Below are positions 7,339 through 36,611 of a stretch of DNA of 64,000 bases, in pieces. This DNA is from Pseudomonadota bacterium (GTDB lineage: Bacteria; Desulfobacterota; Desulfobulbia; Desulfobulbales; JAGXFP01): positions 15,808-79,807 of the forward strand of contig JAHJIQ010000010.1 of the NCBI GenBank assembly GCA_018823285.1, written 5' to 3'. A model generated the notes under the pieces. That model made no database searches and was not told the DNA's origin. It was given only the letters and a program-made list of their open reading frames with translations. The translations under genes and the position numbers were made by a program. Numbering within the stretch: position 1 is the stretch's first letter; every line of letters starts with the position of its first letter.

Positions 7339-10300
7339 TGGCGATCGACATTACCGGCATCAATAACGAGAACGAGTTTTACACCCACCATTATCTTGCG
7401 GCCATTCTGGAGAGTGACCTTAAAGATGTATTTAGCGAGTGGAAACGTAAAGAAGACGATGAAGCCATAAAGCCGCCCCATAAGTTGCTGGGCGGTCTAA
7501 GAAAGAATTTTTTCTCTGCTCTCAGTCTTTTGGAGAAGGAACGCGATGTTGGCGAGAGGATCAGCATCCAGAGAGGATTTACCCGTGAGTTACTGGAGGT
7601 TCTAGGCTATCAAAGCCACTGTCGAACGGCAGAACTTGATGACGCCGGTTCCGTCCCTTTGCTCGGTGGTATCAGCAAGGCAGACGGGTCTCCTGATCTG
7701 TGGATCATCGAGGCCGTTACTGGCCATGGCGAAGAGGCTGATCCGTTAGAGTTAATGCTTTGCGAGGAACAGTATTCCGCCAATGATGAGGACGCAGCAA
7801 AGTTTCTGGAAGTCTCTTTTGAAGAGATCATCACCCGGCATATCTTCAGCATGACGGAGCCCCCCCGCTGGGTGATACTGGTCAGTTTTTCCCAGCTGCT
7901 CCTGGTCGATCGCACCAAATGGCATGAGAAGCGCCTGCTCCGCTTTGATCTTCGGGAGATTCTTGATCGTAGAGAAACGTCAACACTCCAGGCCACAACC
8001 GCACTCCTGCATAGAGATTCCATTTGCCCAAAAGATGGGATGCCGCTCCTTGATACCCTGGATGAGAACTCTCATAAACATGCCTTTGCCGTATCGGAAG
8101 ACCTGAAATACTCGTTGCGCAGGGCTATTGAGCTTCTGGGAAACGAGGCGGTCTATTATCTGCGGGAAAAACTCCATGAAAAGATATACGGCCGGGACAT
8201 GGCCCAACAGCTTACCCGAGAGTGCCTCAGGTATATGTATCGGCTGCTCTTCCTTTTCTATATCGAAGCCCGGCCGGAACTTGGCTATCTGCCTGATAAG
8301 TCTGAGGAGTATCGCAAGGGGTATAGCCTGGAAGCCCTTCGTGATCTTGAGATGGTCCAGCTTAACACTGAGGAAGCAATGGGCAGATTCTTTCTCCATG
8401 AATCCATCCAGACCCTTTTCAGGTTGTTATATGAAGGCTTTCGACCAAAACAGCGTGATATGTTCGGTAGTCATGAACATCATACTTTCCATATTTCTCC
8501 ATTAAGAAGCCATCTCTTTAATCCGGAACAGACCCCGATCCTGAACAGGGTTAAGCTTAGGAATTTTGTTATGCAGGAGATCATCGAGCTGATGTCTCTT
8601 TCCAGAGCAAAGAAGGGAAAGAACACAAGGCGTGGTCGCATCTCTTATGCTCAATTAGGTATCAACCAGTTGGGCGCTGTATATGAGGCCCTGCTTTCCT
8701 ACCAGGGTTTCTTTGCCGAGACAGAGCTCTATGAAGTCAAGAAAGCCGGGGAACAGTATAACGAACTTGAGACTGCCTATTTCGTTAAACCGGAAGACAT
8801 TGAGCAGTATACGAAAGACGAAAAGGTCTACCACCAGGATGGTTCTCTGGTCAAATTTGAAAAAGGTACCTTTATCTACCGGCTGGCGGGAAGAGATCGT
8901 GAGAAGTCCGCTTCTTACTATACGCCGGAGGTCCTGACCAAATGCCTGGTCAAATATGCCTTGAAGGAACTACTCAAGGGGAAAACCGCAGACGAGATAC
9001 TCGAACTCACGGTTTGTGAGCCCGCCATGGGGAGTGCAGCGTTCTTGAATGAGGCGGTCAACCAACTTGCCAAGGCCTACCTGGATCTGAAACAGAAAGA
9101 GATCGAACAGGTCATTACCCATGATGAGTATCCGAAAGAGCTGCAGAAGGTGAAGATGTATATCGCCGACAATAACGTCTACGGTGTGGATCTGAATCCG
9201 GTGGCGGTGGAGCTTGCCGAGATCTCCCTCTGGCTCAACACCATTTATGAGGGGGCCTTTGTCCCCTGGTTCGGTATGCAACTGGTCTGCGGTAATTCGC
9301 TTATTGGTGCGCGGAGGCAGGTTTTCTCCACAAAATTCCTCAAGAAGGAAAAGAAGTCCGATTCTCTTTGGCTGGATGAGGTCCCGGTGCGGGTGATGCC
9401 GGGAGAAGAAAGGAAAGCGGATACGGTGTACCATTTCCTCCTGCCAGACAAAGGCATGGCTGACTATAAAGACAAAGTCATTAAGGAGATGGCTGGAGAA
9501 GAGATCAAGGCCATCAATGAGTGGCGGAAGGACTTCATCCAACCTTTCTCGAAAAGTGAAATCGAACAGCTCAAGAAACTCTCCACTGCGGTGGACAAGC
9601 TCTGGAAAAAGCATACGGAGATGCAGCGCCAGATTGACGACCGCACAACCGACCCACTCCAGGTGTTCGGGCAGGAGAAGCCGGAAGAGAAATTCCGGTT
9701 GAGCACCACGGAAGACAAGGACCGCATCTTTCAGCAGGAAATATTCTCCAAAAATGTTGGTAGTTCGAGCCCATATCGACGTTTGAAATTGGTGATGGAC
9801 TACTGGTGTGCTCTCTGGTTCTGGCCCATAGAAAAAGCGGAGATGTTGCCAAGCCGAGCGGAGTATCTTTTTGATCTTACCCTGCTGTTGGAGGGGAATC
9901 TCTATGACTCCGGGGCAGATGAAAAGGGTCCTCAACTGCTTTTCCCTGATACAAGACCCAAACAGCAATCTCTGACCATGATTGATGAGTTTGGATATGT
10001 GAATGTGGATAAGTTGTGTGAACAAAACCCTCGCTTGGGCTTGGTTCGAAATATAGCTGACAGGTACCGCTATATCCATTGGGAACTTGAATTTGCCAAT
10101 TTGTTTGAGAGTCGAGGTGGTTTTGATCTTATATTGGGGAACCCTCCATGGCTGAAAGTGGAATGGAACGAAGGTGGCATAATGGGTGATGTGGAACCGC
10201 TTTTTGTTTTGAGAAAATTCTCCGCTTCAAAACTTGCTGAAATGCGCCAGATCACCGTTGGCAAATATAATCTCCGTGAAGTATATCTTGCCACCTTCGA

Positions 10301-12065
10301 AGAATCTAATGCCACCCAAAATTTTCTCAACGGGTTGCAGAACTATCCATTGCTCAAAGGTATGCAGAGCAATTTGTATAAATGTTTCCTCCCACAGTCA
10401 TGGACTTACAAAAAAAATGATGGAGTTAGTGCCTTTCTACATCCTGAAGGAATTTATGATGACCCCAATGGTGGAATATTCAGAGAAAATGTGTATTCCC
10501 GACTCAGTTATCACTTTCAGTTTGTTAATGTCAAAAAACTTTTCTCAGAAATCCTCCACTGGGTAACATACTCTATCAATATTTACAGGAAATCAAACGA
10601 CTCTCCTGATTTTATAACATTAGCAAACCTCTTTTTGCCAAGGACAATAGACGATTCGCTACAGCACCCTGGATTAGGTACTGTAGGCGGGATCAAGGAT
10701 GGAAATGACAAATGGAACATCACCGGTCATCTCGCTCGAATCATCTCTGTTAGAGAAGAAGAGCTTGCTCTGTTTGCCCGCCTCTACGACGAAACAGGAA
10801 CACCGCCTCTCCAGGCAAAGTTGCCGGCCTTGCACTCTCGCCAGCTTGTTGGCGTGCTTCGTAAGTTCGCCGCACAGCCTAAGCGGCTCGGAGATATACA
10901 GGAAGAATATTATACGACAGTAATGTGGGATGAGACTAATGCTGTCAAGAAGGATCATACCATTCGTAGGGAAACGAGGTTTCCGGAAAGTCCAAGAGAG
11001 TGGATTCTATCCGGGCCTCATTTTTTTGTCGGTAACCCATTGTATAAAACTCCAAATCGCATTTGCAGAAAGCACCATGAATATGCATCCCTTGACCTTA
11101 CATCCTTGCCTGATGATTATTTGCCACGTACAAACTATGTGCCGGATTGCGATGAGGGAGAATATAGACGACGGACACCTTTTTTAAAAAGTACAGAAAA
11201 CAGGAGGCAAGGCACAAAAGTCCCGGTAACAAATTTTTACAGGTTGGTCTACAGGGGAATGCTTTCACAGTCAGGTGAACGTACTCTTACAGGAGCAATC
11301 ATTCCGCCTGAAGTTGCGCATATTAACGGAGCACAAACAACCGCCTTCAGTAATCTACAAAACCTGCTAAGCGCTGCATCAATTGGATTTTCTTTGGTTG
11401 GAGACTTTTACATTAAATCCACAGGCCGATCTAATCTTCATTTTATCTGGGAAAATCTTCCACTACTCGATCTATCTCAAGATATGGCTATACGTATTTT
11501 AACACTTTCCTGCCTTACCAATCATTATGCCGGCCTTTGGCAGGAATGCTGGGATGAAAATTTTCTAAATACTCGATGGGCCAAAATCAACTCTCGTCTT
11601 CCTAACACCTTCTTCGCTAACCAGACCCCTGTCTGGCAACGAAACTACGCTCTGCGCTCTGACTATATACGGCGACAGGCATTAGTGGAGATAGATGTAT
11701 TGGTTGCCCAAGCGCTGGATATTACTTTAGATGAATTGAAAACCATCTATCAAATACAGTTCCCAGTCCTGCGCCAAAATGAAAACGATACATGGTACGA
11801 CCAAAATGGTCGCATCGTCTTCACCTGCTCGAAAGGCCTTCCTGGTGTCGGCTTTTCCCGCCCTGAATGGAATGAAATCAAGGAAATGCACTCCGGCACC
11901 GTCTCCCGCACCATCATCGACGACACCCAACTCGGCGGTCCTGTCGAACGAATCATTACCTATGAAGCCCCCTTCGACCGCTGTGACCGGGAAAAAGATT
12001 ATGAAGTCGTCTGGTCTGAGTTTGAAAGACGCTTCAAGGAATCCGGGGACAAGGGGCAGGTATAA
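7338..12065 (+). CDS. large gamma-class N6-adenine DNA methyltransferase (DrmMI / type IIG-like)
   Basis: 1575 aa. Motifs: YYTPEVL, SAM-binding VCEPAMGSAAFL, VYGVDLNPVAVELAEISLWL, and catalytic LILGNPPW (NPPW at 10140-10151). It is directly adjacent to the next gene (TAAATG). Confidence 0.9.
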   Translation: MAIDITGINNENEFYTHHYLAAILESDLKDVFSEWKRKEDDEAIKPPHKLLGGLRKNFFSALSLLEKERDVGERISIQRGFTRELLEVLGYQSHCRTAELDDAGSVPLLGGISKADGSPDLWIIEAVTGHGEEADPLELMLCEEQYSANDEDAAKFLEVSFEEIITRHIFSMTEPPRWVILVSFSQLLLVDRTKWHEKRLLRFDLREILDRRETSTLQATTALLHRDSICPKDGMPLLDTLDENSHKHAFAVSEDLKYSLRRAIELLGNEAVYYLREKLHEKIYGRDMAQQLTRECLRYMYRLLFLFYIEARPELGYLPDKSEEYRKGYSLEALRDLEMVQLNTEEAMGRFFLHESIQTLFRLLYEGFRPKQRDMFGSHEHHTFHISPLRSHLFNPEQTPILNRVKLRNFVMQEIIELMSLSRAKKGKNTRRGRISYAQLGINQLGAVYEALLSYQGFFAETELYEVKKAGEQYNELETAYFVKPEDIEQYTKDEKVYHQDGSLVKFEKGTFIYRLAGRDREKSASYYTPEVLTKCLVKYALKELLKGKTADEILELTVCEPAMGSAAFLNEAVNQLAKAYLDLKQKEIEQVITHDEYPKELQKVKMYIADNNVYGVDLNPVAVELAEISLWLNTIYEGAFVPWFGMQLVCGNSLIGARRQVFSTKFLKKEKKSDSLWLDEVPVRVMPGEERKADTVYHFLLPDKGMADYKDKVIKEMAGEEIKAINEWRKDFIQPFSKSEIEQLKKLSTAVDKLWKKHTEMQRQIDDRTTDPLQVFGQEKPEEKFRLSTTEDKDRIFQQEIFSKNVGSSSPYRRLKLVMDYWCALWFWPIEKAEMLPSRAEYLFDLTLLLEGNLYDSGADEKGPQLLFPDTRPKQQSLTMIDEFGYVNVDKLCEQNPRLGLVRNIADRYRYIHWELEFANLFESRGGFDLILGNPPWLKVEWNEGGIMGDVEPLFVLRKFSASKLAEMRQITVGKYNLREVYLATFEESNATQNFLNGLQNYPLLKGMQSNLYKCFLPQSWTYKKNDGVSAFLHPEGIYDDPNGGIFRENVYSRLSYHFQFVNVKKLFSEILHWVTYSINIYRKSNDSPDFITLANLFLPRTIDDSLQHPGLGTVGGIKDGNDKWNITGHLARIISVREEELALFARLYDETGTPPLQAKLPALHSRQLVGVLRKFAAQPKRLGDIQEEYYTTVMWDETNAVKKDHTIRRETRFPESPREWILSGPHFFVGNPLYKTPNRICRKHHEYASLDLTSLPDDYLPRTNYVPDCDEGEYRRRTPFLKSTENRRQGTKVPVTNFYRLVYRGMLSQSGERTLTGAIIPPEVAHINGAQTTAFSNLQNLLSAASIGFSLVGDFYIKSTGRSNLHFIWENLPLLDLSQDMAIRILTLSCLTNHYAGLWQECWDENFLNTRWAKINSRLPNTFFANQTPVWQRNYALRSDYIRRQALVEIDVLVAQALDITLDELKTIYQIQFPVLRQNENDTWYDQNGRIVFTCSKGLPGVGFSRPEWNEIKEMHSGTVSRTIIDDTQLGGPVERIITYEAPFDRCDREKDYEVVWSEFERRFKESGDKGQV

Positions 12066-15000
12066 ATGGCCGGATATATTCATGACCCTCTGCAGATCAT
12101 TAACCTTATTGCGGACAACCTGCGTGACCGCTACAAGAGCGGTTTCCCTGTTCTCAAGGAAATCATCCAGAACGCGGACGATGCCGGCTCCACTGACGAT
12201 CCTATCCAGCTTGAATTTGGACTTTCCCGCGGCATCTCCAATGCCGAACACCCACTCCTGAAAGGCCCAGCCCTTTATTTTCTCAATAACGGTGCTTTTG
12301 CAGATACGGATTACAAGGCCATCCTTTCTTTCGGCCTGAACCGTAAGGCCATCGAGCAGTCTTCCATCGGCAAGTTCGGCCTCGGCATGAAGAGTGTTTT
12401 TCACTTCTGCGAAGCCTTTTTCTTTCTGGCCCAAAACAAGGACAGGGACTATACAGAAATTCTTAATCCATGGTCCGGCGGTGATTTATCCTCCTTTCAA
12501 GATCACAATGACTGGGACAATTTTTCCACCTCCGATGCCGGTTTGATCCGTGACCATGTTCAACCCGTTATGGAAGAGATGGACTTAAAAGGGTCTTCTT
12601 TTCTGCTGTGGCTACCATTGCGGCAAAAAAAACACCTACTGGTGAATGGCAAAGAGGTTGGTAGCATTATTTCTGAGTTTCCCGGAGACAACGATCATCT
12701 CCTTTCTTTTCTTGATCAGCAAGAACTTGCCCAAAAGATCGCCTCTCTACTGCCTTTATTACGCCGAATCAACAGTATCCGTTTCTGGCATGCCAACGGT
12801 GACGCCACTGTGGCTTCTCCGCGCTTTCAGGTCTCCATGAAAGGGGCAAGCCGCATCGGGTTTGCGAATGGAGAATACCAGTCGAAAGACCTCGAAGGGG
12901 TTGTTCACTATCAGTATAACGGCATGGAAGATAATTTGTATGCCCTGACTTATTCTGGCCAGGAAAAACTTCTGGAGATCCCTGAGCTGCTTTCACTTCG
13001 GGAGTCCCCTCTCTGGCCCAAGAGTTACGTTCGGGATGATCTTGGTAAGAGCCAGGAAGCGCCGGATAAGGCACGGGGACATGGCGCGGTTATCTTCTCG
13101 CGCTCCAATGAAAAAGAACAGGGCCGGTTAAAGATCCGCTGGGCGGTTTTTTTGCCGGTGGATGCTGCCAAGGAAGAAGTTGCCTGTGCAGGTGAAAGTT
13201 GCTACCGGATTACCTTGCACGGTTACTTTTTTGTTGATGCCGGACGGGTAGACATCGAAGGGCTACAAGATGGCGCCGATCAAGTCGATCTCACTGCCGT
13301 TCCTCAAAACGAGGTAGAATTGCGGCGGGTCTGGAATATCCGGTTAGCCAGACAGGGAACCCTGCCGCTCGTCCTCCCTGCTTTGGAGGCTTTTATCGCC
13401 AAGGCACGCCTTTCCGCCGATGACATCTGGAATCTCAGTGAGGGAATAGAGAAGTCTAAACTTTTCAAGCGGCACAAGGAAAGTATCTGTGCAAGTTCCT
13501 CCTGGACTTGCTGCCTGAACCAAAAGGGACGGGAATGGTGCATCCTGCCCGGTGATCAGGAAAATCTCCCCTTGCCTGGTCCACCACTATCTGCTCCCGA
13601 GCGGCCATGGAAAACCCTTCCCAAGCTGGAATTACTCCAGGAGCGTGGTATTGCACTCCTTCTAAAGGATGCCCCTCATCTCCTTGCCCGTTCTTTGCCA
13701 CAATGGAACGAGGCAAATCTTTTAGAAGTATTGTCTCTTCCGGAAAAAAAAGTCTTCACAGATCAGGGTTGCCTTGATTATTTGCTTCAATTCATGGCGG
13801 ATCCTTCCATCAAGCCGTTTTTGACTGTAGGCAGTTTACAGCAAAGATTGCGACAGATTGCCAACCATGCCTTTATTGCTCTGGGAACCGATCTACGCCA
13901 ACATAGAAAGAAGGTTCAGGAATTTGTCTCCTTCATCCTGCCGGAAAGTCGCTTCGCCTTGAAACCGGATGCGCCGCAGGTTATTCGCGAGTTGCAGCAG
14001 TGTAAAACCGGAGTGCTGATCCTGGCAAACGAATTTGACTCGCATGATAGCGCCGGGAATGCTCGTCTTACCATTGAGGACGCCTTTACCCTACTCGAGA
14101 AGCTCCATGATCTGATTACCCGCTACGAACATCGTAATGAGCAGGAAATAATCAAGCATTGCCGCACCATTGCCAAGGAAATCCTGCAAGGCCAGAACGA
14201 GGAGCAACGCCGGACGCTTCTTGTTCAGGCTGATGGGCTGAAAATCCTTGAAGGTGTAGATTGTATTAAGCGAAAGGTTGTGGCCTTGTCACCAGCTGAT
14301 CTGAAAGATCGCTACGACAATCAGCTTCTCTTCCTATATTCCCAGGGAACGACTTCATCCCAACGCTTGGGACTAGCCTTGAGTTTGCAAAAGGCCGTCC
14401 GGGAACCTGTTGTGTTAACAAGTCGTGAAACGATAAAATTTGTGTTTGGAGAAAACTGTAAACTCACTCCATGCACGGCTGATGGGGTTCTTGATTCCCT
14501 TGGGTCTGAAATCCTGCCATTGCAGACAATTGACAACAGACGTCAACTGCTCCCGGATGTGGCAGGGGCCGATCTTGACTTGCCAAGACGGGTTCGTGGG
14601 CTGAGATATCTTCTTCATGGCCTTGAGGAGTATTTTGATGACGATGAAACACTCTGGGTTTCGGGATACGACCAGAGTCCTGTCTGGGGAAAACTCTGGC
14701 AACAGCTTGAAAGCCACCATGAGGACGGCTGGAACCTTTTGGATAGAAAGCTGGTTGAGGAGATCCCGCCAAACAAGTGGCCGAAGCTTGCGATCCGTGA
14801 AATCAAACCGGACGGCATTCTGGAGGAACTTCGCATCAAAGGGCCAGGAAGCATAACCGGCGATCTATTCATCCCCGATGAGCGTGATGCTGTCTTGCGC
14901 GAACTTGTCAGTGATGAGGAACTCTGGAAGAATCTGCCGTTCCACGAAACGGTCATGGGGAATCTGGTATCCATCAGCGCCGAAAAATCATACCTTGAAA

Positions 15001-18000
15001 GCAGTATTCTCCTTCCTGATGAGTTGCACAATAGCGCTGATATCATCAAGAGTTCAAATGACTCTGCGATTAGAAGGCAGCAGAAAGAATGGCTTACACC
15101 CCTTTCCAAAGAAGGTGTCATTCGGATTGTTATGCAACATGAGGAACCGGCCAAATTCTGGCGGCTGGTGATGGACAACCTAGAAGCCGGAACCAGTCTT
15201 ATTCGCAGCCCCTTGCTCCGGGATACTCCCTGGCTGCCTGACAGTAATCTTGTTTCGGTGAAACCCTCGGATGTGCTGTGCCTGGAGAACATGCAGGATG
15301 AAGTGGACAGACTGCTGGTGGTTGCCCGAGGAGCTTTCTGGTCTCCTGGCAAGCTGCTAGACGATCTGCAGCAGCACCAATCCTTTGCGCTCCTAAAAGA
15401 ACACTCTTTTGCCATAGGCCAGGAAGGCTTTGAGAAACTGGCGCTGCTTCTTGGCGAAACCAGCGAATATCATGTGGGAACAATCATCTATCAGGAAGAT
15501 GATTTTGACCGGATCGTCCGGATATGTGCCCGATTCCCGGTTCATCTTAGCCTACCTGGCTGGGTCTTGCTCTCCTGCGCTCTGGACAACTCGAAAGAAA
15601 TGGCGAAGGAATTTCTTTTGACCGAGATCATGCAACCGATTGAAGGTGAGCGAATTGTCGCCATCCTGAACTGGCTGCAGGAAGAACATGTCAAGGTGGG
15701 CAAAGGCGTAAAGAAAGATTTACTTGCCTCCTTTAATTCCTATCTGGCTGCCTTGGTTAACATAGAGGGTGGGACGGACATCATATCCAGACTATCATTG
15801 CTCAACCGCGATGGTGATTGGAAACCGGCAAAGGAACTTTGTTCCGAGGCTGAAGGGGTGGCAGACAGTCATCTCCTGGATGATGAACAGAAACGTATTT
15901 TACGGAATATTATTTTTCATGCTGATCGCCAGCAGGCTACAGAAGATGAAAAAATTCCAAGTAAAAGGGATCTGCAACCGGAAATTACGGCTTCCGCTGA
16001 TCAACTTGAAACATTTTTTTCTGAATGGGAGGGACTTGTCGCCCCTGAAATTATTTGCGCATTTCTCTCGCTTCTCGGGGATGACCCTAAGATGTTAGCC
16101 CTGGCGGAAAGATACCGAGGCAGGCATTCCGTGAATTGGGTGCGTGATAATATCCCTTGGCAGATTCATCACCGTAACGATGAACTGAATCGCCAAGAGT
16201 GGCTGTATGGGCTGAATCAACATCAGGCTATGGCCCAGCATCGTTTTATAATCCGCTGCTCTGATGGCGACATGGTCCAAACCTGTTCCATTCTTGGTGG
16301 AGAAATAGAGGTTCCCCTGAAGAGCCGTTTTTCTACGTTGATAACCGGCGGCCTTTTTTATGAGTATCCCGACGGACAGATCAACAACGTGCGTATTTCT
16401 TTGCGACGCCCATGTGTCGAGGATCTCTCTCCGACAGAGCTTTCTGGGGTGCTTAAGGCTTCAGCTGAATATCTCCTTAAAAAGGCTTTTAACCAGCGAG
16501 ATTACGACCTGGGGCGGCTTTGGGAGGAGCTAGATCGCTCGGAACAACTCGATATCCGCATCGCTCAGCAACTTGTCCTGAACCATATTCCCTTTTATCT
16601 GCGTCAAATGGGTTGGCATAAGCACCCCATTCTTCAGAATCTCCTGAATCAATGGGATGATGCTTGTCGTAACAAAGAAGAATATTACGAAACCAAAGAT
16701 AAAAGAGATATTTATGATGGCGAGATACGGGATGTTCTTAAAAAAATACAAGAGCTGTTAAAAACGGATGAAGATGTCCAAGCTGCTGTCTTGAATGCGG
16801 TGCGGACTAAGATCGTTGATTTTCAATATTCGACTGCCAGTATTCCTTTCGAGCTATTTCAAAACGCCGATGATGCTGTAGTCGAGCTAGCCATGATGAA
16901 GGCCTACCCCAAAACTCCGGCTGAGATGGGTGATGAAATTCTCCCCGACCATGTCAGACGTTTCCTGATAATTGAACAGGACAATTCTTTGCTGATAGCC
17001 CATTGGGGTCGGCCGGTCAACGAGTTCGGTAGTGCGGGTTTCCCCGGTAGGGAAAGAGGCTTCCATCAAGACCTCGAAAAAATGCTGGTACTCTCTTCAT
17101 CTGATAAGTCGGAAGAAGGTAAGGTGACTGGAAAGTTCGGTCTGGGATTTAAGAGTGTTCTGTTAGCCAGTGAAAGGCCCAGGTTGTTGAGCGGCAGACT
17201 GGCAACGGAAATCATAGCAGGTCTCTGCCCAATTCTGCTCAAGGATTCGGCGCAGCTTCGCAGCAAGCTCCATGAACTTTCTCCGGATAGGAGATGGCAG
17301 GGAACTCTTCTTGAATTACCGCTAAAAGATAGTACGCCACAGGAAATCATGTCGCCCTTTTCCCAGCTGGCAGGGGTCATGACCATCTTTTCAAAACAGA
17401 TCCGCCGGATCGATATTCATGGCAACACCAATCAAGCCTGGGAGTGGGCGCCGGAGAAGATTTCCCTGGCTGACGATGCATGTCTTGAACTTGGTCAATT
17501 GCCTATGCCGGAAGGGCTGCACCAGAGCGGGTTTGCTGTCTATTTCAAACTTCATGACGGTGGAATACTCCTTGCCGTAGGGCCAGAAGGCTTCCGGGTG
17601 TTGCCGGTTGAATTGCCAGCTATCTGGGTTGTTGCGCCAACCAGGGAAAGTGAGGGGCTAGGGTTCGCCGTCAACTGCATGTTTGACCTGGATGCCGGGC
17701 GTGCCAGACTCGCAGGTAACAGTAACGTAAACAAACAAAAGGCACAGAACCTTGGCAGATCATTCGGACAGGCCTTACGAAAACTCTATGGGATGTCTCT
17801 GGTGCAATGGGATGATTTGAAAGCCAATTTTCGTTTTGAGGAGGATCTTACTACTTACGATTTTTGGGCAACGCTATGGAAAGTAATCGGCGAAGGCATA
17901 CAGGCCCGTGGAAGTGAAGAGGTAAGTAACCTGGTGTCACAATTGTTCTGTGGTGACAATGGACTCGGGTATCTGATTTCGCACGAAGACGCCATGCCAA

Positions 18001-19682
18001 ATGGACTCTGGAATAACTATCGAACATTGACCAGGCCGGATAAAATCCAGGTTGTCCTTAAGGGAAACCTGGGGAATGCCTTTATCTTCAAGGAACTCGT
18101 TGAATGGGAGTTTTTCCGCAATTTCCTTGGGGCCCCGGAATCGGTGACAACGGATGCTGTTTACACTGTTGCACGAAAGGTATTCCCCGCTCTTGGCCAG
18201 GCAAAAAGTCAATGGCGATCAGTGCAGCTTGCTGATGTACTCCGAAGTTTTTCTGAAACAGAGAAGGAAATTTCACCGGACACAGCCGTCATTTTAGGCA
18301 GATTATTGAACCACGATGCTTTGAAGCACGAAGATTTTGAAAAAGAAAAAGAATTAATAGGGCAAGCCTTGCACTCCTTTTTATTCAAAACTCAGGATGC
18401 TTCTTTTCACTCTGCCGATGAAATTCTTGTTCTTCAAAAACACAGCCAGGCTAACCCGGATGAAGCAAAGCGAGCTGCATTTGCCCCTGAAAACCATATT
18501 CTCTTCAGGGAATATCAAGGTACAGGACTGGATTTTTTCTTTTCGTGCCGGGAGAAAATTTCCATTCCGCTGGAGAAGATGGCCCAATGGGTAATTGATG
18601 CGGAAGGGAATGAGAAAAAGGAAAAAGCTTTACTCTATCTTCTTGAAGGCGAGCATGGCGAAAAAGTTGCGCATCTTTTGAGGGAAAATGGGATTAATGG
18701 AACGTGGTTAAGGGAGTTGAGGCCTAATTCGTTGATATTCACCGGCTGGAAAGATGATGATATTACCGAGTTGCTTTTAAGAAAATTACCTTCCACAGTC
18801 GAGCTACTTGATTCAAATAGAGGATGGGATGAAGAAGCTGATATGGACGACATCCCAGCCCCCCTTGATCCAGGTCTCGCCCTTAATAAGATTTGGGACT
18901 GGTGGGCGACAAATAAGAACGACCTTTTGAAAAGGTATTACGATCACACTTTTCCTATGGGAGCTATTCCTAGTCTGCAAGTGGATGATGTCGGGCAGAC
19001 AAATCGCTCATCCTGGCTGATATTATTTGTTCTTGCCCATCTCCACACCATGGGCCGCCAACAAAACTACCACCACCGAAGCTTTATAGAGTTATGCATG
19101 AGTAAGGGGTGGTGGCAAACTTTTGCAGCGAAAAACCCGCAAGGCAGATCTGATGAATGGATGAAGGTTCTAGATGAATATATAGATGAGCAGATTGACA
19201 GCAGTTCATACGAACATTGGATGAATCGCTTCCCAGCAATCTACCGCATTGCAAGGGGGATTGACGATTATACAGAGCTGTTACTGAGCCTAGATAGATA
19301 TACAGGTAAAGATAATATTGGGAAACTTTTACAGCCAAGTGCAAATTCTCAATATCAGGGTGGAGGAATAAGTGCTCCCCCGATCAACAAAACATTAGGG
19401 TATGGGATCTGTTTTGCTATTAGAGAATTGAGCCGTTGTGGTGTCTTGAAAAATGAACACGTCACCCCCTATTGCTATGTCCCCGTTAAGAGAGTGCGAG
19501 GGTTATGCCTACTGCTTGATAACAAAGAGGTCGGCGATGTTCCTTTTGAATCATCTCGCCTCATCCACCAAATGCTTTGTCAGTATCTTGGACCGGAAAA
19601 GGCGACTTTTGAGGGATGCTTCGACATCCCACTGCAAATCCTTTCTGAAGATAAAGACTTGCTGCAAGAAATGCTCAAATAG
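12066..19682 (+). CDS. giant protein with two sacsin-type GHKL (Hsp90/MORC-like) ATPase modules
   Basis: 2538 aa. Bergerat-fold N-box KEIIQNADDAGS is near aa 31, followed by GKFGLGMKSVFHF. A second copy, ELFQNADDAVVEL, is at about aa 1596 (nt 16851-16889), followed by GKFGLGFKSVLLAS. Confidence 0.8.
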   Translation: MAGYIHDPLQIINLIADNLRDRYKSGFPVLKEIIQNADDAGSTDDPIQLEFGLSRGISNAEHPLLKGPALYFLNNGAFADTDYKAILSFGLNRKAIEQSSIGKFGLGMKSVFHFCEAFFFLAQNKDRDYTEILNPWSGGDLSSFQDHNDWDNFSTSDAGLIRDHVQPVMEEMDLKGSSFLLWLPLRQKKHLLVNGKEVGSIISEFPGDNDHLLSFLDQQELAQKIASLLPLLRRINSIRFWHANGDATVASPRFQVSMKGASRIGFANGEYQSKDLEGVVHYQYNGMEDNLYALTYSGQEKLLEIPELLSLRESPLWPKSYVRDDLGKSQEAPDKARGHGAVIFSRSNEKEQGRLKIRWAVFLPVDAAKEEVACAGESCYRITLHGYFFVDAGRVDIEGLQDGADQVDLTAVPQNEVELRRVWNIRLARQGTLPLVLPALEAFIAKARLSADDIWNLSEGIEKSKLFKRHKESICASSSWTCCLNQKGREWCILPGDQENLPLPGPPLSAPERPWKTLPKLELLQERGIALLLKDAPHLLARSLPQWNEANLLEVLSLPEKKVFTDQGCLDYLLQFMADPSIKPFLTVGSLQQRLRQIANHAFIALGTDLRQHRKKVQEFVSFILPESRFALKPDAPQVIRELQQCKTGVLILANEFDSHDSAGNARLTIEDAFTLLEKLHDLITRYEHRNEQEIIKHCRTIAKEILQGQNEEQRRTLLVQADGLKILEGVDCIKRKVVALSPADLKDRYDNQLLFLYSQGTTSSQRLGLALSLQKAVREPVVLTSRETIKFVFGENCKLTPCTADGVLDSLGSEILPLQTIDNRRQLLPDVAGADLDLPRRVRGLRYLLHGLEEYFDDDETLWVSGYDQSPVWGKLWQQLESHHEDGWNLLDRKLVEEIPPNKWPKLAIREIKPDGILEELRIKGPGSITGDLFIPDERDAVLRELVSDEELWKNLPFHETVMGNLVSISAEKSYLESSILLPDELHNSADIIKSSNDSAIRRQQKEWLTPLSKEGVIRIVMQHEEPAKFWRLVMDNLEAGTSLIRSPLLRDTPWLPDSNLVSVKPSDVLCLENMQDEVDRLLVVARGAFWSPGKLLDDLQQHQSFALLKEHSFAIGQEGFEKLALLLGETSEYHVGTIIYQEDDFDRIVRICARFPVHLSLPGWVLLSCALDNSKEMAKEFLLTEIMQPIEGERIVAILNWLQEEHVKVGKGVKKDLLASFNSYLAALVNIEGGTDIISRLSLLNRDGDWKPAKELCSEAEGVADSHLLDDEQKRILRNIIFHADRQQATEDEKIPSKRDLQPEITASADQLETFFSEWEGLVAPEIICAFLSLLGDDPKMLALAERYRGRHSVNWVRDNIPWQIHHRNDELNRQEWLYGLNQHQAMAQHRFIIRCSDGDMVQTCSILGGEIEVPLKSRFSTLITGGLFYEYPDGQINNVRISLRRPCVEDLSPTELSGVLKASAEYLLKKAFNQRDYDLGRLWEELDRSEQLDIRIAQQLVLNHIPFYLRQMGWHKHPILQNLLNQWDDACRNKEEYYETKDKRDIYDGEIRDVLKKIQELLKTDEDVQAAVLNAVRTKIVDFQYSTASIPFELFQNADDAVVELAMMKAYPKTPAEMGDEILPDHVRRFLIIEQDNSLLIAHWGRPVNEFGSAGFPGRERGFHQDLEKMLVLSSSDKSEEGKVTGKFGLGFKSVLLASERPRLLSGRLATEIIAGLCPILLKDSAQLRSKLHELSPDRRWQGTLLELPLKDSTPQEIMSPFSQLAGVMTIFSKQIRRIDIHGNTNQAWEWAPEKISLADDACLELGQLPMPEGLHQSGFAVYFKLHDGGILLAVGPEGFRVLPVELPAIWVVAPTRESEGLGFAVNCMFDLDAGRARLAGNSNVNKQKAQNLGRSFGQALRKLYGMSLVQWDDLKANFRFEEDLTTYDFWATLWKVIGEGIQARGSEEVSNLVSQLFCGDNGLGYLISHEDAMPNGLWNNYRTLTRPDKIQVVLKGNLGNAFIFKELVEWEFFRNFLGAPESVTTDAVYTVARKVFPALGQAKSQWRSVQLADVLRSFSETEKEISPDTAVILGRLLNHDALKHEDFEKEKELIGQALHSFLFKTQDASFHSADEILVLQKHSQANPDEAKRAAFAPENHILFREYQGTGLDFFFSCREKISIPLEKMAQWVIDAEGNEKKEKALLYLLEGEHGEKVAHLLRENGINGTWLRELRPNSLIFTGWKDDDITELLLRKLPSTVELLDSNRGWDEEADMDDIPAPLDPGLALNKIWDWWATNKNDLLKRYYDHTFPMGAIPSLQVDDVGQTNRSSWLILFVLAHLHTMGRQQNYHHRSFIELCMSKGWWQTFAAKNPQGRSDEWMKVLDEYIDEQIDSSSYEHWMNRFPAIYRIARGIDDYTELLLSLDRYTGKDNIGKLLQPSANSQYQGGGISAPPINKTLGYGICFAIRELSRCGVLKNEHVTPYCYVPVKRVRGLCLLLDNKEVGDVPFESSRLIHQMLCQYLGPEKATFEGCFDIPLQILSEDKDLLQEMLK

Positions 19683-19691: not shown

Positions 19692-22373
19692 ATGACCAAC
19701 TATGCCGTTGGACAGACAGTCTTACACCCACAGTTTGGTTCCGGGCATATTGAATTCAGTAAGGGCGAAACCGTCATTGTCCGTTTCAAGCACGGTCTTG
19801 AAGAGTGTGTTGTTGATTCTCTACAGACCAAATTAGGCGTTAAGGAAGGCATCGAATCCGGGCAGCTTGCACCCGCTCAGGAAAGCATTTGCCGCGTTCT
19901 GGCAGAATCAATTGTTTCGGTGAATGATAATTGGGGGGTGTTTTCTAAATCCAGGATCGCCCTTTTGCCTCATCAGCTCTGGGTGTGCCATCGTGTTCTA
20001 CGTCAATGGCCAGCCCATTTCCTGGTTGCCGATGATGTCGGGTTAGGAAAAACCATCGAAGCGGGCCTGATCCTCTGGCCGCTGCTTTCGAAAAATCTGG
20101 TCAAGCGGCTCTTGGTTATCTGCCCTGCATCACTCGTTGAACAATGGCAATACCGGCTGCGTGACATGTTTGATATCCGCCTTGCCAGGTACTTGCCGGA
20201 AGCGGATACACCGCGTGCTGATTTTTGGAATACCCATAACCAGGTTGTCGCTTCCATGCAGACCCTCCGGGATGACCGTAATGATCGTCATCAACGCATC
20301 TTTGAGGCGGAACCATGGGATCTCCTCATTGTTGATGAGGCCCATCACCTCAACGCAGATAAAGATAAAGGAGGCACCTTGGGATATAAGCTGGTTGAAG
20401 GACTTGTCCGAGAAAACCTCACTCGGTCAAGAATCTTTTTTACCGGTACACCTCATCGAGGCAAAGACTACGGTTTTTTTGCTCTCTTGCGTTTATTGGA
20501 ACCTGACCAGTTCTCTCCTAACAGGCCCATCGAAGAACAACTTCCATATCTTCGCAACGTGATTATTCGCAACAATAAGCAGAATGTCACCGACATGGAG
20601 GGCAACAAAATTTTTAAACCGATCAGTGTTTCTTCAGAAACTTATTCCTACACCGAGGAAGAGGCCGCATTTTATAACCTGCTGACCGAGTTTATTGCTT
20701 CAGGAAGGGCATATGCCTCGAACCTTTCGAGCACCAATCAAAATGCTGTAATGCTGGTTTTGATCTCGATGCAGAAACTGGCTTCCAGCTCCATAGCTGC
20801 AATTAGAAAGGCCTTGATTGGCAGACTCTTCAGGCTCAGACAGGCGGGAGACAATCTGCAAGTTGCCAGGGAACGCCAGGATATGATCCGCCAGATTCTC
20901 GACTCCGCCGACGAGGCAAATGTATCGTCGCTTACCGATGAGCTGCAACGTCAGGAAGAGATAATCGCCGAGATTTCATTTTCTTTGCCGTTGATGGAAG
21001 ATGAAATTCCCCAGCTTGAGATCCTGGTTGACCGGGCTGAAGCTGTTACCAGGGAAACCAAAATAGAAAAAATAATAGAAGTGCTTGAAACGCGTTACGC
21101 TGATCGTGCTGTGCTGTTTTTCACTGAGTACAAAGCGACCCAGGCGCTTTTGATGTCGGCGCTCATGAAGAGATTCGGTGATGACTGCGTGACCTTCATC
21201 AATGGTGACCACCGCATAGAAGGCGTGGTCGGATTAGATGGCAATCCGAGAACAATTTCCCTGCAAAGGGCCGATGCTGCCGATCAGTTTAACGAGGGCA
21301 AGGTCCGTTTTCTTGTCTCCACCGAAGCAGCAGGGGAAGGCATTGATCTGCAGGAATCCTGTTATTCTCTCATTCATGTCGACCTGCCGTGGAACCCTAT
21401 GCGCTTGCATCAGAGGGTTGGGAGACTCAACCGTTATGGTCAGAAGATGCCAGTGGAAGTTATTACCCTGCGAAACCCTGCCACGGTTGAATCTCGGATT
21501 TGGGGTAAATTAAATGAAAAAATCGCCAGTATCATGCGTGCCCTAGGTGGAGCTATGGACGAACCGGAGGATTTGCTGCAACTGGTTCTTGGCATGACTT
21601 CTCCCACCCTGTTTACGGAGCTGTTTGCCGCTGGTGCGGCAGTGAGTGAAGATCGTTTGGATAATTGGTTTAATACAAAAACACAAACCTTTGGCGGTAA
21701 AGACGCCATTGATACAGTCAAGGCTTTGATCGGCAATTGTTCCCGCTTTGATTACCAGGATTTGAAAAAGATTCCTCCAAAGGATCTCGAAGATCTGCAG
21801 CCATTCTTTGAGGCCATGCTTTCTCTGAACAAAAGACGGGTGCTGCGCGAGGATTCCGGGTTGGCTTTCAAAACACCGGATGAGTGGCTGAAGAATGCCG
21901 GTATCAGACAACGCTACGAAGGGCTTCTTTTTGAGAGAAATTTAAGGGGTAAAGATGCCGCATTACGGGTTGTTGGAGTTGGACACAAGGTTTTTGATCA
22001 GGCAATATTACAAGCTACTGACTTTGATGCCTGTTTCACCTCTGTTACCGGCTTAACTGAAGCGGTATCAGTATTTAAAATTTATGACAGAATAACTTCC
22101 CAAGACGGTAATATCCGCCAGATTATCGTTGGTGTTGAAGCCGGAAGAGAGGAATTGGTTCAAGATTGGCAGCTCATTGATTTAATGAACAATATTTTAA
22201 AAACCAAGAAACTGGAGGCGGGTAGCCCTGCTGATTACGAGAAGGAAAAGTTGCTTCGCTTTATTACAGAGGCTGAGGCGGTTGTCAAAGCAAAGATGGA
22301 TGAGTTGAACACTCCATTTAATATGCCGGAAATAAAACTTTTAAGTCTGTTCATCCCGGCAGCGGGAAACTAA
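19692..22373 (+). CDS. second SNF2-family helicase with N-terminal UvrD/PcrA-type Tudor-like segment
   Basis: 893 aa, with an AGGAGAG Shine-Dalgarno sequence. Motifs: LVADDVGLGKTIEAG, LIVDEAHHL, FFTGTPHRGKD, STEAAGEGIDLQ...HVDLPWNPMRLHQRVGRLNRYGQ. The N-terminus reads GQTVLHPQFGSGHIEF. Confidence 0.9.
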   Translation: MTNYAVGQTVLHPQFGSGHIEFSKGETVIVRFKHGLEECVVDSLQTKLGVKEGIESGQLAPAQESICRVLAESIVSVNDNWGVFSKSRIALLPHQLWVCHRVLRQWPAHFLVADDVGLGKTIEAGLILWPLLSKNLVKRLLVICPASLVEQWQYRLRDMFDIRLARYLPEADTPRADFWNTHNQVVASMQTLRDDRNDRHQRIFEAEPWDLLIVDEAHHLNADKDKGGTLGYKLVEGLVRENLTRSRIFFTGTPHRGKDYGFFALLRLLEPDQFSPNRPIEEQLPYLRNVIIRNNKQNVTDMEGNKIFKPISVSSETYSYTEEEAAFYNLLTEFIASGRAYASNLSSTNQNAVMLVLISMQKLASSSIAAIRKALIGRLFRLRQAGDNLQVARERQDMIRQILDSADEANVSSLTDELQRQEEIIAEISFSLPLMEDEIPQLEILVDRAEAVTRETKIEKIIEVLETRYADRAVLFFTEYKATQALLMSALMKRFGDDCVTFINGDHRIEGVVGLDGNPRTISLQRADAADQFNEGKVRFLVSTEAAGEGIDLQESCYSLIHVDLPWNPMRLHQRVGRLNRYGQKMPVEVITLRNPATVESRIWGKLNEKIASIMRALGGAMDEPEDLLQLVLGMTSPTLFTELFAAGAAVSEDRLDNWFNTKTQTFGGKDAIDTVKALIGNCSRFDYQDLKKIPPKDLEDLQPFFEAMLSLNKRRVLREDSGLAFKTPDEWLKNAGIRQRYEGLLFERNLRGKDAALRVVGVGHKVFDQAILQATDFDACFTSVTGLTEAVSVFKIYDRITSQDGNIRQIIVGVEAGREELVQDWQLIDLMNNILKTKKLEAGSPADYEKEKLLRFITEAEAVVKAKMDELNTPFNMPEIKLLSLFIPAAGN

Positions 22374-22385: not shown

Positions 22386-25300
22386 ATGATTCCCTCCGTC
22401 CTCTCGCAACATGTTGAACAAGGCATCAAGGATTTTCTGCGTACCACTTTCCCTGTTACCACTCCATTCTTCTCGACAATAATTGAACGGCTCTTAACCG
22501 AACATGGCAGTGTCTTCAAGGGGCCATATCTCGATATCCAGTTACCCTTTCAGCAGGGCAAGGGAGGGACCAATTATTTCCCAGACTTGCCAATGCAGAA
22601 TCCTCCATATCTCCATCAGGAGCGGTCTTTTGATAGACTGTCCGGGCCAAATCCGCAGGCAACAATAGTCGCAACCGGAACCGGTTCTGGAAAGACCGAG
22701 TGTTTTCTCTATCCCATCCTTGATTATTGTTACAAGCACCGGGGGGAACCCGGTATCAAGGCGATTCTCATCTACCCCATGAATGCACTGGCCACAGATC
22801 AGGCAGGAAGACTCGCCAAGCTTATCCATAACAGTAAATTGAAGGGCCATGTTTCTGCGGGAATATATGTGGGACAGAGTGAAAAAGAACCGGCCATGCT
22901 TATGACTGAAGATCGGCTGATTTCTGATAAAAGCACCTTGAGGTTATCACCACCTGATATTTTGCTGACCAACTACAAGATGCTGGACTACCTCCTCATC
23001 CGCCCTGAGGATCGTCAGTTATGGCTGCAAAACAGTTCGGAAACTTTGCGGTTTCTTGTCGTTGATGAACTGCATACCTTTGATGGCGCACAAGGCTCTG
23101 ATCTTGGTTGTTTGATCCGCAGGCTGAAAGCCAGACTGGCGATTGAACCGGAATATCTCTGTGGTGTAGGGACATCAGCCACCCTTGGTAGTGATGAAGA
23201 ACAGAAAGAATTGCTTGAGTATGCATCCTCTGTGTTTGGAGAGACTTTTGGTCCGAGTGCGATTATCTCCGAAACCCGCTTGAGTGCCGGAGAGTTTTTA
23301 GGAGACAGTCTTGTTTCCCAAGTGGATATTGTTCCTCCTGAAAGAGCACTTGAGCTCGATCCCGGACAATACAACAGATATGAAGAATACATTAAGGCAC
23401 AACATCGACTCTGGTTTGATGAAGACATTGAAGGGGCATTCGATGAATCAGGATGGCGTTTTGACATCGGTGCTAAACTGAAAGAACATCTCTTTTTCCA
23501 GAACCTGCTTAAAGTTCTCGGGGGAACGATTTACGGCTTTGACAATATTCTTGTCAAACTGGAGAAGGTGACCAGGAGTCTGAAAAACACAGATAGCCAT
23601 TACAAGGTGAGCATGCTGAACAGCCTGTTGTCCCTGGTGTCTGAAGCCAGGGTAGAGGTTGTTTCAAAGAATGATGACGGTAGCGAGAAGTCAGTAGTCC
23701 GACCTTTCCTTAATGTCCGGGTTCAGCTGTGGATGCGTGAGTTGCGGAGAATGGTGGCCAGTGTCGCTAATGATCCTGTTTTACGCTTTGCTGACGATCT
23801 GAACGAAGAGCAGCTCAAAAACCATCTTCCTTTGGTTCATTGCCGGGATTGTGGCACCATGGGCTGGTCTGGCCTGAAGCGGATGACGAGTTCAGAGATC
23901 AGGGGAGATCTGCAGGACTATTACCATGGCTTTTTCAGCCATGACCCCCAGATTGTTTATCTCTTTCCGGACGATAACCAGCCTAAGGTCCAGTTAGATA
24001 ATCTGCGGGGGGAAGGAGCAGATCCGTTCAGGAAGGTTGGGATGCGCTATCTGTGTACTCGGTGCCTTAATGTGACGGCTCAGGAGAATCCGATACATTG
24101 CCCGGCTTGCGAGCATGATGAGCTGATCCTGGTTCATATGCCCGATGTGAGGATACAAAGGGGTAACCGTCAGGTGAGTCATAATGACTGCCCCTATTGT
24201 AGTGCCCCGAACAGTCTTACTCTGGTCGGTTCTCGGGCTGCGAGCCTGACATCGGTCATGATCGTCCAGCTTTACTCTTCCCCGTACAACGACGACAAGA
24301 AGCTCCTCACCTTCTCGGATAATGTTCAGGATGCAGCTCACCGGGCAGGATTTTTTAACGGAAGAACGTATAGGTTTAATTTCAGGACCGCTCTCCAGAA
24401 GGTCATATTGGAAACCGGCGATGGCAAGACCCTGGCGGAACTTCCTGGCGTCTTTACTGATTACTGGACCCGAAAGGTCGATCAGAACCGCTACATTGCC
24501 ACCTTCCTGGCCCCCAACATGGAGTGGTTGAGTGACTACGAACAGCTGAAGGCGCAAGGATCTCTGCAAAAGGACTCTTCCCTCCTGCAGAATGTCAACA
24601 ATCGGATCGGTTGGGAAATTATCAGTGAGTACGGCTTCCAGACAAGAATTGGGCGAACCCTGGAGAAAACAGGTTCTTCGGTTGTTTACCTTGATCATGG
24701 CAAGTTGCGAACGGCAACCGAACTGATGCTTGAACCCATTCGTAATGAGATCGGCACATTCAGAGAGCTTGAAGAGGAGCAACTCATAAAGTTTCTGCTT
24801 GGCTTTATGGTCCACCTGAAGAACCAGGGTGGCATATACCAATCGCATTTATCATCTTTCATTGAATCTCTTGGGATCTCTTTTCTGTTAAACAGAAAAA
24901 TATGGATGCCAAATTTTGGCCAGTATTCACGCACGCCGTCCTTTCTTACTACCAAAAAGGGCAGCCGCTTCGATCAGCTTTACAGTGCTTCGCCGACACA
25001 TCGGACTTGGTATCAGGCTTGGGCAGAAAAATGCTTCTTTGCCCTTTCGCCGTTTGTGCTTGCATCATCAAACGAACTTTATGAGCAGGTTCTGAAGGTG
25101 CTTATTGCCACGGGAATCCTTGAAGAAAAGGATGCAAAAGGGGAAAGGGTCTGGGGGATTAATCCTGAAGCCTTGCGGATATCAGCCAGGGTCAAGCAGC
25201 TACGATGTAGAGACTGTGGCCACAATATTTCTGTAGCGGAAGAAGAGAGCGAGTTTTTTCAAGAGGCCCGGTGTCAGCGCTTCCATTGTTACGGCAAATA

Positions 25301-36304: not shown

Positions 36305-36611
36305 TTTATCATTATGGAGTGCTAGAGATTATAAGGGTTGTACAAGAATTGGAAGAAGGCCTTCTTTGATATTAGAACAGAATAATTGTGTGGTGATGTA
36401 CACAACCCGATTCTTCCGCTTGCCTATCTTTTTCACAGACTTTGACCAACAGTCCGTCGCAAATTTAATATGGAAATAATTATAACAAACACGCATTGTC
36501 GGTTAGATTGAGTTCGTTTATTTGAGATGGAAGGGGGAATGTGATTTCAGGAACTGCCCCTGTGCCCTTTGCAACAGAGATACGGTGTTGAATCATGAAA
36601 CAACCAACCAG

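Follow-up and report, generated by a model that had tools for sequence, protein, structure and literature searches.

The window analysed here is the whole stretch of 64,000 nucleotides (nt) from contig JAHJIQ010000010.1 of a Desulfobulbales bacterium, and its central element is a giant gene that spans positions 12066-19682 of the plus strand. The giant gene has an ATG start and encodes a single protein of 2538 amino acids (aa), which is identical to KKG35_03020, a database entry of a Proteobacteria metagenome-assembled genome. The ATG of the giant gene abuts the stop codon of the methyltransferase gene upstream, forming a TAAATG junction, and the gene that follows encodes SNF2b, an ATPase of the SNF2 family. 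The positions of these genes, of the domains and motifs of the giant protein and of the remaining features of the window are collected in Table 1.

Two sacsin-type GHKL modules in a single chain

The giant protein carries two deeply diverged sacsin-type GHKL (Bergerat) modules. Each module comprises an N-box, with the sequence KEIIQNADDA in module 1 and ELFQNADDA in module 2, as well as a glycine-rich lid, which reads GKFGLGMKSV and GKFGLGFKSV, respectively. The two N-boxes are located 1565 residues apart, and the lids lie 70 (module 1) and 93 (module 2) residues past the N-box Glu. The original prediction had anticipated this arrangement closely, placing the duplicated N-box about 1560 residues apart, near nt 12156 and 16851, with a GKFGLG(M/F)KSV lid 70-90 residues past each copy. 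Translated in all six frames, the window contains QNADDA and GKFGLG at these four sites and nowhere else. The double occurrence of the motifs in the giant protein is far beyond chance.

Profile searches relate both regions to sacsin. When scanned separately, aa 1-500 and aa 1546-2045 match the Pfam SACS family (PF25794) with 82.7 and 34.3 bits, respectively, against a cut-off of 32.8, the match of module 2 being marginal and covering only part of the profile. The NCBIfam model NF047352 ('P_loop_sacsin', for the sacsin N-terminal ATP-binding-like domain) matches two stretches with 105 bits (cut-off 50). In addition, eight PADLOC models of TmtA match the giant protein (best E-value 1.9e-26), divided between module 1 and module 2, with PDLC03964 covering aa 1595-1795. 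The claim of a sacsin/Hsp90-type GHKL protein is therefore borne out by profile matches above the Pfam SACS and NCBIfam cut-offs for both regions, whereas the specific assignment to HATPase_c_3 is not, as this profile reaches 17.7 bits, below its cut-off of 25. The two modules are related to each other by profile-profile alignment with hhalign (97.2% probability, E-value 3.5e-11), and the BLASTP comparison of the two halves aligned the lid motif alone (E-value 0.022). Human sacsin SR1 (5V44) matches module 1 directly in phmmer (E-value 1.5e-14), and no direct match was obtained between module 2 and the sequence of the human sacsin SR1 structure.

AlphaFold2 models, calculated on a 38-sequence alignment, cover aa 1-1200 (with a mean pLDDT, the model's own confidence score, of 84.9) and aa 1561-2538 (mean pLDDT 86.0). 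The top Foldseek match of the N-terminal half is sacsin SR1 (5v44; E-value 3e-7, template modelling score, TMt, of 0.5-0.64), with longer alignments of 470-620 columns to GRP94, DNA-bound MORC2 and GyrB 43K, for which the TM-scores to the N-terminal fragments of MORC2 and GyrB are low (0.3-0.44). The best matches of the C-terminal half are full-length Hsp90-family chaperones (E-value 1.6e-7, 550-770 columns), and module 2 matches the N-domain of GRP94 with a TMt of ~0.5. The Bergerat fold suggested for both copies is thus recovered in the models through sacsin SR1 and Hsp90. In both models the fold matches reach beyond the Bergerat domain into the next beta-rich domain, with MORC2, GyrB 43K and Hsp90 N+M aligned over 470-770 columns, although the TM-scores are low. 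The glycine-rich lid is the sole low-confidence stretch within each modelled ATPase, as would be expected of a mobile ATP lid. The lid of the second copy, named beforehand as one point at which the assignment might fail, is present as TGKFGLGFKSV and is conserved to at least 98% per checked position among 114 homologues.

More than 100 full-length homologues of ~2500 aa are found at 32-75% identity. Catalytic Glu, Mg-binding Asn and N-box Asp are kept, along with the GxxGxG lid and the Arg of the DAGR motif, in 110-114 of the 114 homologues in both modules. Within module 1, residues E32, N36, D39, N74, G76, G102, G105 and G107 are found in 112-113 homologues, the rest being gaps, and H385 and R394 of the following beta-rich domain in all 114; within module 2, E1596, N1600, D1603, W1647, G1648 and R1649 are present in every homologue, and the lid glycines G1689xxG1692xG1694 in 112-114. 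This conservation of catalytic residues indicates that both sites are under selection. The Asp through which canonical GHKL enzymes contact adenine gives way to Asn74 in module 1, a replacement also seen in sacsin, and to His1646 in module 2.

A beta-rich domain that closes with an invariant (F/V)DAGR motif comes after each ATPase, and the alignment of the two beta-rich domains is collinear but weak (E-value 0.0017). Beyond the ATPase and the beta-rich domain, no duplication was detected by hhalign over all pairs of regions, apart from a weak match (43%) of aa 1179-1258 to aa 2034-2120. Since the two halves have no detectable relation past this point, the giant protein does not consist of sacsin-like repeating units. 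The proposal that its architecture mirrors sacsin therefore stands for the ATPase modules and fails elsewhere, where the remainders of the halves lack mutual similarity and no ubiquitin-like (UBL), DnaJ or HEPN domain is detected. The two heads are separated by ~1150 residues of mostly helical scaffold with few invariant polar residues. The C-terminal domain of 274 residues has no Pfam or PDB sequence match, contains invariant R2453, E2454 and D2520 as well as near-invariant H2337, is present in 958 representative clusters and is located at or near the protein end in all 150 matches listed. A HEPN-like C-terminus, prompted by the GRxxxxQH motif, was not adopted, there being no Pfam or PDB profile match; the R-x5-H of this motif is kept as R2331 in 101 and as H2337 in 107 of the 114 homologues. 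When compared with a viral fold library, the C-terminal half gives GHKL-type matches only (rIIA, HtpG-domain and GyrB-like proteins). Naturally split versions of the protein were likewise considered and set aside: proteins of 1200-2300 aa in the representative library contain a single N-box at a variable position, and the location of this N-box ~930-1050 aa from the C-terminus, where checked, makes the short proteins look like N-terminally truncated fragments.

The SNF2b partner and the ARMADA type II surroundings

The giant gene and SNF2b are obligate partners in a cassette of two genes that is laterally mobile. Of 185,579 species genomes scanned, 350 were positive (0.19%), and 80 species-level loci were fetched from these for neighbourhood analysis. 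An SNF2b orthologue of ~890 aa lies directly downstream of the giant gene, on the same strand, in 64 of the 65 evaluable loci, defined as those with a complete giant gene and at least 3 kb downstream, and the gap between the two genes is usually <180 nt. The exception is locus L079 (17603-24046), where SNF2b is adjacent on the opposite strand, behind ArmC- and ArmD-like genes, in an operon that converges on the giant gene. No third conserved gene emerges from clustering of the surrounding open reading frames (ORFs), the most widespread neighbour family reaching only 7 of the 80 loci. The divergence of one gene tracks that of the other (Pearson 0.91, Spearman 0.71, n=66), and no plasmid record with an SNF2b orthologue at >=45% identity lacks the giant gene. 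On the Deinococcus wulumuqiensis plasmid NZ_CP031163.1, the giant gene and the helicase each match at two places, which suggests two copies of the cassette. The methyltransferase that had been considered as the operon partner of the giant gene is not a conserved neighbour; it is the SNF2 helicase downstream that is conserved as a partner.

The SNF2 motifs of SNF2b, which include a Walker A sequence (GLGKT, with Lys120) and a DEAH box, are intact, and the protein is paralogous to the BrxHII, DrmD and ArmA helicases. Among solved structures RapA comes closest to it (E-value 4e-33), with the similarity limited to the SNF2 core (aa 87-286). The PADLOC DrmD model PDLC02634 matches SNF2b over its full length with 1089 bits, and the BrxHI and BrxHII models also match. 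No conserved nuclease motif is present in 67 orthologues, and Pfam finds nothing in the N- or C-terminal regions.

The giant family spans at least 15 phyla, comprises ~960 clusters at 50% identity and occurs on plasmids as well; no match was found in 50,697 phage records. Culturable bacteria with an orthologous pair include Pseudomonas sp. GM18 (AKJT01000033), Vibrio paucivorans, Marinobacterium lutimaris and Deinococcus sp. QL22, in which it is on a plasmid. The architecture had been called rare in bacteria, which is correct with respect to frequency but not with respect to breadth, since many phyla contain it.

In the window, the pair is flanked by four genes that are full-length orthologues (about 39-51% identity) of a contiguous cluster on the Escherichia coli plasmid pQnrS1_005237 (locus L090, NZ_CP026578.2:23155-47433), in which SNF2, methyltransferase, YprA and UvrD genes follow each other uninterrupted and the pair is lacking. 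ARMADA type II consists of ArmA-ArmB-ArmC-ArmD in strict order and has been validated in E. coli (Bell et al. 2025, PMC12458937). The flanking genes correspond to this gene set and order, with the strict order broken by the two-gene insertion. For the cluster of pQnrS1_005237, too, the ARMADA II label denotes a match in gene set and order. The existence of the uninterrupted, pair-less four-gene cluster in E. coli indicates that the pair was inserted exactly at the ArmB-ArmC junction. SNF2b and ArmC are separated by ~12 nt, and scans for promoters and terminators across the operon reveal no excess of promoter-like or terminator-like sites. The ArmD-like protein of the window has an N-terminal extension of ~250 aa with no ParE/RelE match; in its orthologue at L067, ParE_toxin gives an E-value of 8.7e-4, below the cut-off.

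The insertion between ArmB and ArmC recurs in relatives at 75%, 67% and 32% identity (L087, L088 and L019, respectively). Other insertion points are also observed, with the pair between ArmA and ArmB (L009), before ArmB (L017) or before ArmA-ArmB (L026), and at L015 ArmC and ArmD follow directly after the pair. ARMADA-type genes are found beside the pair in roughly 11-14% of the 80 loci, and ~85% have none within 10 kb. Indeed, a relative from Desulfosarcina variabilis, 66% identical, is without ARMADA; it has McrBC on one side and an OLD-family gene on the other, and BREX lies upstream. The methylase/helicase operon is therefore not the giant protein's own unit, as initially assumed, but an ARMADA type II operon into which the pair has been inserted.

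Additional genes are observed at some of these sites. In the 67%-identical relative (L088:8686-9770), a 275-aa DUF2971 protein and a 74-aa ORF lie between ArmB and the giant gene, which argues that the insertion site took more than one cargo. The most frequent optional neighbour, at 7 of the 80 loci, is a RecD-like SF1 helicase of ~1230-1250 aa (AAA_30/UvrD_C_2, with a long N-terminus; L019:6190-9951, L076:12725-16423, L025, L045, L052, L061 and L030), which adjoins the pair in at least six of the seven and at L019 is located between ArmB and the giant gene. The plasmid pQnrS1_005237 is a conjugative IncFIB resistance plasmid, on which a ~2100-aa DEAD/DEAH helicase precedes the ARMADA-II-like cluster and an integrase follows it. 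This helicase is likely to be DruE of Druantia III, a system whose co-occurrence with ARMADA II has been reported (Bell et al. 2025, PMC12458937).

The distribution of the pair is patchy, plasmid-borne and defence-island located. Its neighbours include BREX, McrBC, type I restriction-modification (R-M), Gabija-like, Wadjet-like, GmrSD, BrxR/WYL, integrase and toxin-antitoxin genes. BREX genes are near the pair in only 1-2 of the 80 loci; the pair is located right after brxL at L005 and after brxL, DUF932 and McrBC genes at L004. No methyltransferase gene neighbours the pair at the Chloroflexi locus L003 or on a plasmid from Deinococcus.

The window itself is a conflict island. Downstream of ARMADA lies an ABC-3C-type conflict system, followed by a co-directional cluster that is possibly a further multi-gene defence system, and by two RHS-repeat proteins that, together with the small ORF behind each, look like toxin/immunity pairs. 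The GC content climbs to 0.56-0.58 around 56-60 kb of the window.

Table 1. Genes, domains and motifs in the window (positions in nt from the first letter of the window)
Feature	Position	Strand	Size or protein range	Remarks
ORF flanking the ARMADA cluster	3744-4226		160 aa	no Pfam match
ArmA-like BrxHII/RapA-type SNF2 helicase	4489-7338	+	949 aa	50% identity, full length, to E. coli plasmid orthologue
ArmB-like PglX/type IIG-like N6-adenine methyltransferase	7338-12065	+	1575 aa	51% identity, full length
Giant protein	12066-19682	+	2538 aa	ATG start
GHKL (Bergerat) module 1	12093-12770	+	aa ~10-235	N-box, lid, Pfam SACS and sacsin SR1 matches
N-box of module 1	12156-12185	+	aa 31-40	KEIIQNADDA
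LNNGAF, module 1	12282-12299	+		in place of DxGxG box
Lid of module 1	12369-12398	+	aa 102-111	GKFGLGMKSV
Beta-rich transducer-like domain 1	12771-13250	+	aa ~236-395	model secondary structure, Foldseek
HGYFFVDAGR	13218-13247	+		invariant, closes beta-rich domain 1
Long, mostly helical scaffold between the ATPase modules	13311-16745	+	aa ~416-1560	no family match
GHKL module 2	16833-17405	+	aa ~1590-1780	SACS, TmtA PDLC03964, hhalign, Foldseek
N-box of module 2	16851-16877	+	aa 1596-1604	ELFQNADDA
AHWGRPVN, module 2	16998-17021	+		in place of DxGxG box
Lid of module 2	17130-17159	+	aa 1689-1698	GKFGLGFKSV
Beta-rich domain 2	17406-17720	+	aa ~1781-1885	invariant FDxDAGR
MFDLDAGR	17679-17702	+		the FDxDAGR of beta-rich domain 2
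Helical/mixed region	17724-18815	+	aa ~1887-2250	invariant E2133 and R2162; R2136 94% conserved
C-terminal domain, all-helical, conserved	18858-19679	+	aa 2265-2538
GRxxxxQH	19053-19079	+		C-terminal domain motif
QGGG	19356-19367	+		C-terminal domain motif
R2453-E2454	within 19419-19436	+		C-terminal domain motif
FDIP	19620-19637	+		C-terminal domain motif
SNF2b, RapA/BrxHII-like SNF2 ATPase	19692-22373	+	893 aa	ribosome-binding site GGAGA; 9-nt gap after giant gene
ArmC-like YprA-family DEAD helicase	22386-28775	+	2129 aa	MZB/DUF1998 domain; 39% identity over 99% of length
ArmD-like GajB/UvrD helicase	28776-30917	+	713 aa	49% identity to E. coli plasmid orthologue
ORF flanking the ARMADA cluster	30954-31493		179 aa	no Pfam match
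ABC-3C-type conflict system	31808-35579		428, 187 and 646 aa	Cap4-type dsDNA endonuclease, MC4, ABC/SMC-like DUF3732 ATPase
Co-directional cluster	36522-48195		1868, 820, 382, 630 and 199 aa	SF1 helicase AAA_11/AAA_12, PIN_4, 382-aa unknown, ClpB-like AAA_2, radical-SAM-like Fer4_12
RHS-repeat protein	50181-55445		1754 aa
Small ORF after RHS-repeat protein	55493-56278			no family match
RHS-repeat protein	56300-61642		1780 aa
Small ORF after RHS-repeat protein	61646-62527			no family match

Relation to known systems

The giant protein shares its sacsin-type GHKL ATPase with TmtA of Tiamat, which is also large and without a recognised effector domain at the sequence level. In contrast to the Tiamat models, which have 1300-1780 residues, one ATPase and a single gene, the giant protein has two ATPases within 2538 aa and an obligate SNF2 partner. 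The best TmtA matches cover the ATPase alone, that is, the first ~160-190 positions of the profile (for example, 26-182 of 1370), and membership in Tiamat was rejected, there being no full-length TmtA match and a two-gene pair instead of a single gene. No description of the mechanism of Tiamat was found in the literature searched.

With eukaryotic sacsin, the protein of the ataxia ARSACS (SR1 structures 5V44-5V47), the giant protein has in common the QNA(D/E)DA N-box, the NN in place of DxG and the G(K/R)FG(L/I)G lid, as well as the presence of several modules in one giant protein. Sacsin has three repeating regions, whereas the giant protein has two modules, is bacterial, is paired with SNF2b and is found in defence islands. 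A sacsin orthologue was rejected, since profile scans yield the SACS domain only and no match to UBL, DnaJ, XPCB or HEPN. The NCBI annotation already names the protein 'sacsin N-terminal ATP-binding-like domain-containing protein'.

The linkage to a helicase is reminiscent of the prokaryotic MORC and paraMORC operons of GHKL proteins and SF2 helicases, for which restriction-like activity by DNA looping or clamping has been predicted (Iyer, Abhiman & Aravind 2008, PMC2292703). These are mobile, are often near methylases and combine a GHKL domain and its following domain with a neighbouring SWI2/SNF2 helicase. The pair differs in that two ATPases reside in one chain and neither a nuclease nor a methylase is obligatory; sacsin-type ATPases are unmentioned in Iyer et al. 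2008. The general theme of GHKL plus helicase is already known.

With respect to ARMADA II, SNF2b is a paralogue of ArmA, but neither the giant protein nor SNF2b is an ARMADA component. A sacsin-type or GHKL gene is unmentioned in the ARMADA paper (PMC12458937), in the guilt-by-embedding preprint (Payne et al. 2024) and in a 2026 survey of BREX. PADLOC v2 has no system-specific model for the pair, assigning to the giant protein only TmtA, over the ATPase, and mislabelling the helicase as DrmD. DISARM, prompted by PADLOC matches to DrmD, DrmMI and DrmA, was rejected on NCBIfam cut-offs and gene content: SNF2b lies below both NCBIfam DrmD cut-offs (304 versus 610 bits and 153 versus 950), SNF2a of the window reaches 349 bits against the cut-off of 610, the helicase and MZB/DUF1998 are fused in one 2129-aa protein in the window, and there is neither a phospholipase D (PLD) gene nor a separate DrmB or DrmC. 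While SNF2b can be likened to DrmD of DISARM class 1 and BrxHII of BREX, its conserved partner is not a methyltransferase but the GHKL giant.

Proposed function of the pair

We propose, with moderate confidence, that the pair is an autonomous two-gene cassette, most likely for anti-phage or anti-plasmid defence, that is nested in ARMADA II in this window. This reading draws on the embedding of the pair in defence systems, on the restriction-like theme of GHKL proteins with SF2 helicases and on the type of ATPase that is common to Tiamat. In BREX, DISARM and R-M systems, embedded genes often belong to defence systems themselves (Payne et al. 2024 preprint), and Tiamat is a validated single-gene defence system in PADLOC.

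Several points weigh against a defence cassette of this kind. Profile searches identify no nuclease or effector domain in the giant protein or SNF2b, and the loss of the adenine-contacting Asp in both modules means that ATP binding is not guaranteed. As sacsin and Hsp90 are protein chaperones, the substrate could be a protein. The defence-island context was read from neighbour lists rather than from a statistic of enrichment, and full-text literature searches returned no description of the pair. Moreover, ARMADA-type genes at several intercalated positions, beside ~11-14% of the loci, also fit a functional link.

The pair might not be autonomous but an accessory or regulatory module of ARMADA/DISARM/BREX-type methylation systems, acting, for example, as an extra sensor or as a loader of the YprA helicase-nuclease, and would then have no activity apart from them. 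Its intercalation into ARMADA II, with at least three distinct positions, is consistent with this model, as are the shared strand, the junctions that abut or span about 9-13 nt, the association with ArmC and ArmD at L015 and L079, the position directly behind brxL (L005) or brxL, DUF932 and McrBC (L004) and the paralogy of SNF2b to the ArmA/BrxHII/DrmD helicases. We nevertheless consider an accessory role improbable, given that at most loci the nearest 10 kb hold no ARMADA-type gene and that BREX is found at only 1-2, that neither the Chloroflexi locus nor the Deinococcus plasmid has a methyltransferase next to the pair, that the 66%-identical relative is free of ARMADA and that E. coli ARMADA II functions as four genes without the pair.

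A protein-directed, chaperone-like machine, which would sense or remodel phage proteins or RNA polymerase complexes together with its RapA-like partner, appears unlikely as well. The Hsp90 chaperones as best fold matches of module 2, the proximity of module 1 to sacsin SR1 and the failure of profile scans to recognise a DNA-binding domain or nuclease would be in keeping with such a machine, and RapA, the closest solved relative of SNF2b, is an RNA-polymerase-associated recycling factor. However, the likeness to RapA is limited to the SNF2 core, the matches of module 1 include DNA-bound MORC2 and GyrB, every recurrent neighbour is a system that targets DNA, and the known prokaryotic operons of GHKL proteins and SF2 helicases are tied to restriction systems. 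A role in housekeeping or in the maintenance of mobile elements (DNA repair, chromosome or plasmid organisation, anti-restriction), for which one could invoke the action of GHKL and SNF2 proteins (MutL, MORC, RapA) in repair and chromosome organisation and the presence of the pair on large plasmids, on one of which recA is nearby, is very improbable in view of the very patchy distribution, of a neighbourhood that is never a conserved housekeeping one and that contains or adjoins known defence systems, and of the absence from phage records.

Within the reading as a defence cassette, a clamp mechanism can be outlined by analogy. GHKL machines such as MutL, MORC, GyrB and Hsp90 shut their lids upon ATP binding, which drives head-to-head engagement. 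Located at the ArmB-ArmC junction, the pair would be co-transcribed with the ARMADA II operon. ATP-driven engagement of the two heads of the giant protein, possibly within one molecule, would then turn a single chain into an ATP-gated clamp for the capture of invading DNA, on which the RapA/BrxHII-like SNF2 partner would perform ATP-driven translocation or remodelling, so that replication would be blocked or the DNA exposed to a nuclease. The likeliest place for an effector or partner-binding site would be the C-terminal domain, with R2453, E2454, D2520 and H2337. We regard this mechanism as tentative and rather less probable than defence as such; we infer that DNA may be the substrate and that an effector step of this type may follow. 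The earlier idea of a clamping or sensing ATPase may be a reasonable one.

A more far-reaching version, which we consider doubtful, envisages stand-alone, methylation-independent immunity, whereby one chain supplies both GHKL heads and closes as an ATP-gated ring on foreign DNA that the SNF2 motor would compact, silence or clear. The pair would then be a prokaryotic counterpart of MORC-type silencing, and the family the bacterial source of animal sacsin. If so, the ancestral role of sacsin would be antiviral or nucleic-acid-directed, rather than purely that of a chaperone. Sacsin-like genes recur in transcriptome papers on the antiviral responses of fish, oyster and coral, and sacsin is among the domains of antiviral conflict systems in a paper of the Aravind group; a link of animal sacsin-like genes to immunity is possible.

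If the pair is a defence system, a widespread two-gene type, present in ~350 species genomes, would be added to the prokaryotic immune repertoire, with the unusual design of two GHKL heads in one chain plus a motor of the chromatin-remodeller type. Its nesting within ARMADA II would represent a clean natural case of one defence cassette inside another, useful for studies of co-regulation and synergy. For annotation, such loci are not DISARM, and the giant 'hypothetical protein' is to be read together with its helicase. The giant protein also provides a tractable bacterial model for the ATPase module of sacsin, the human ataxia protein.

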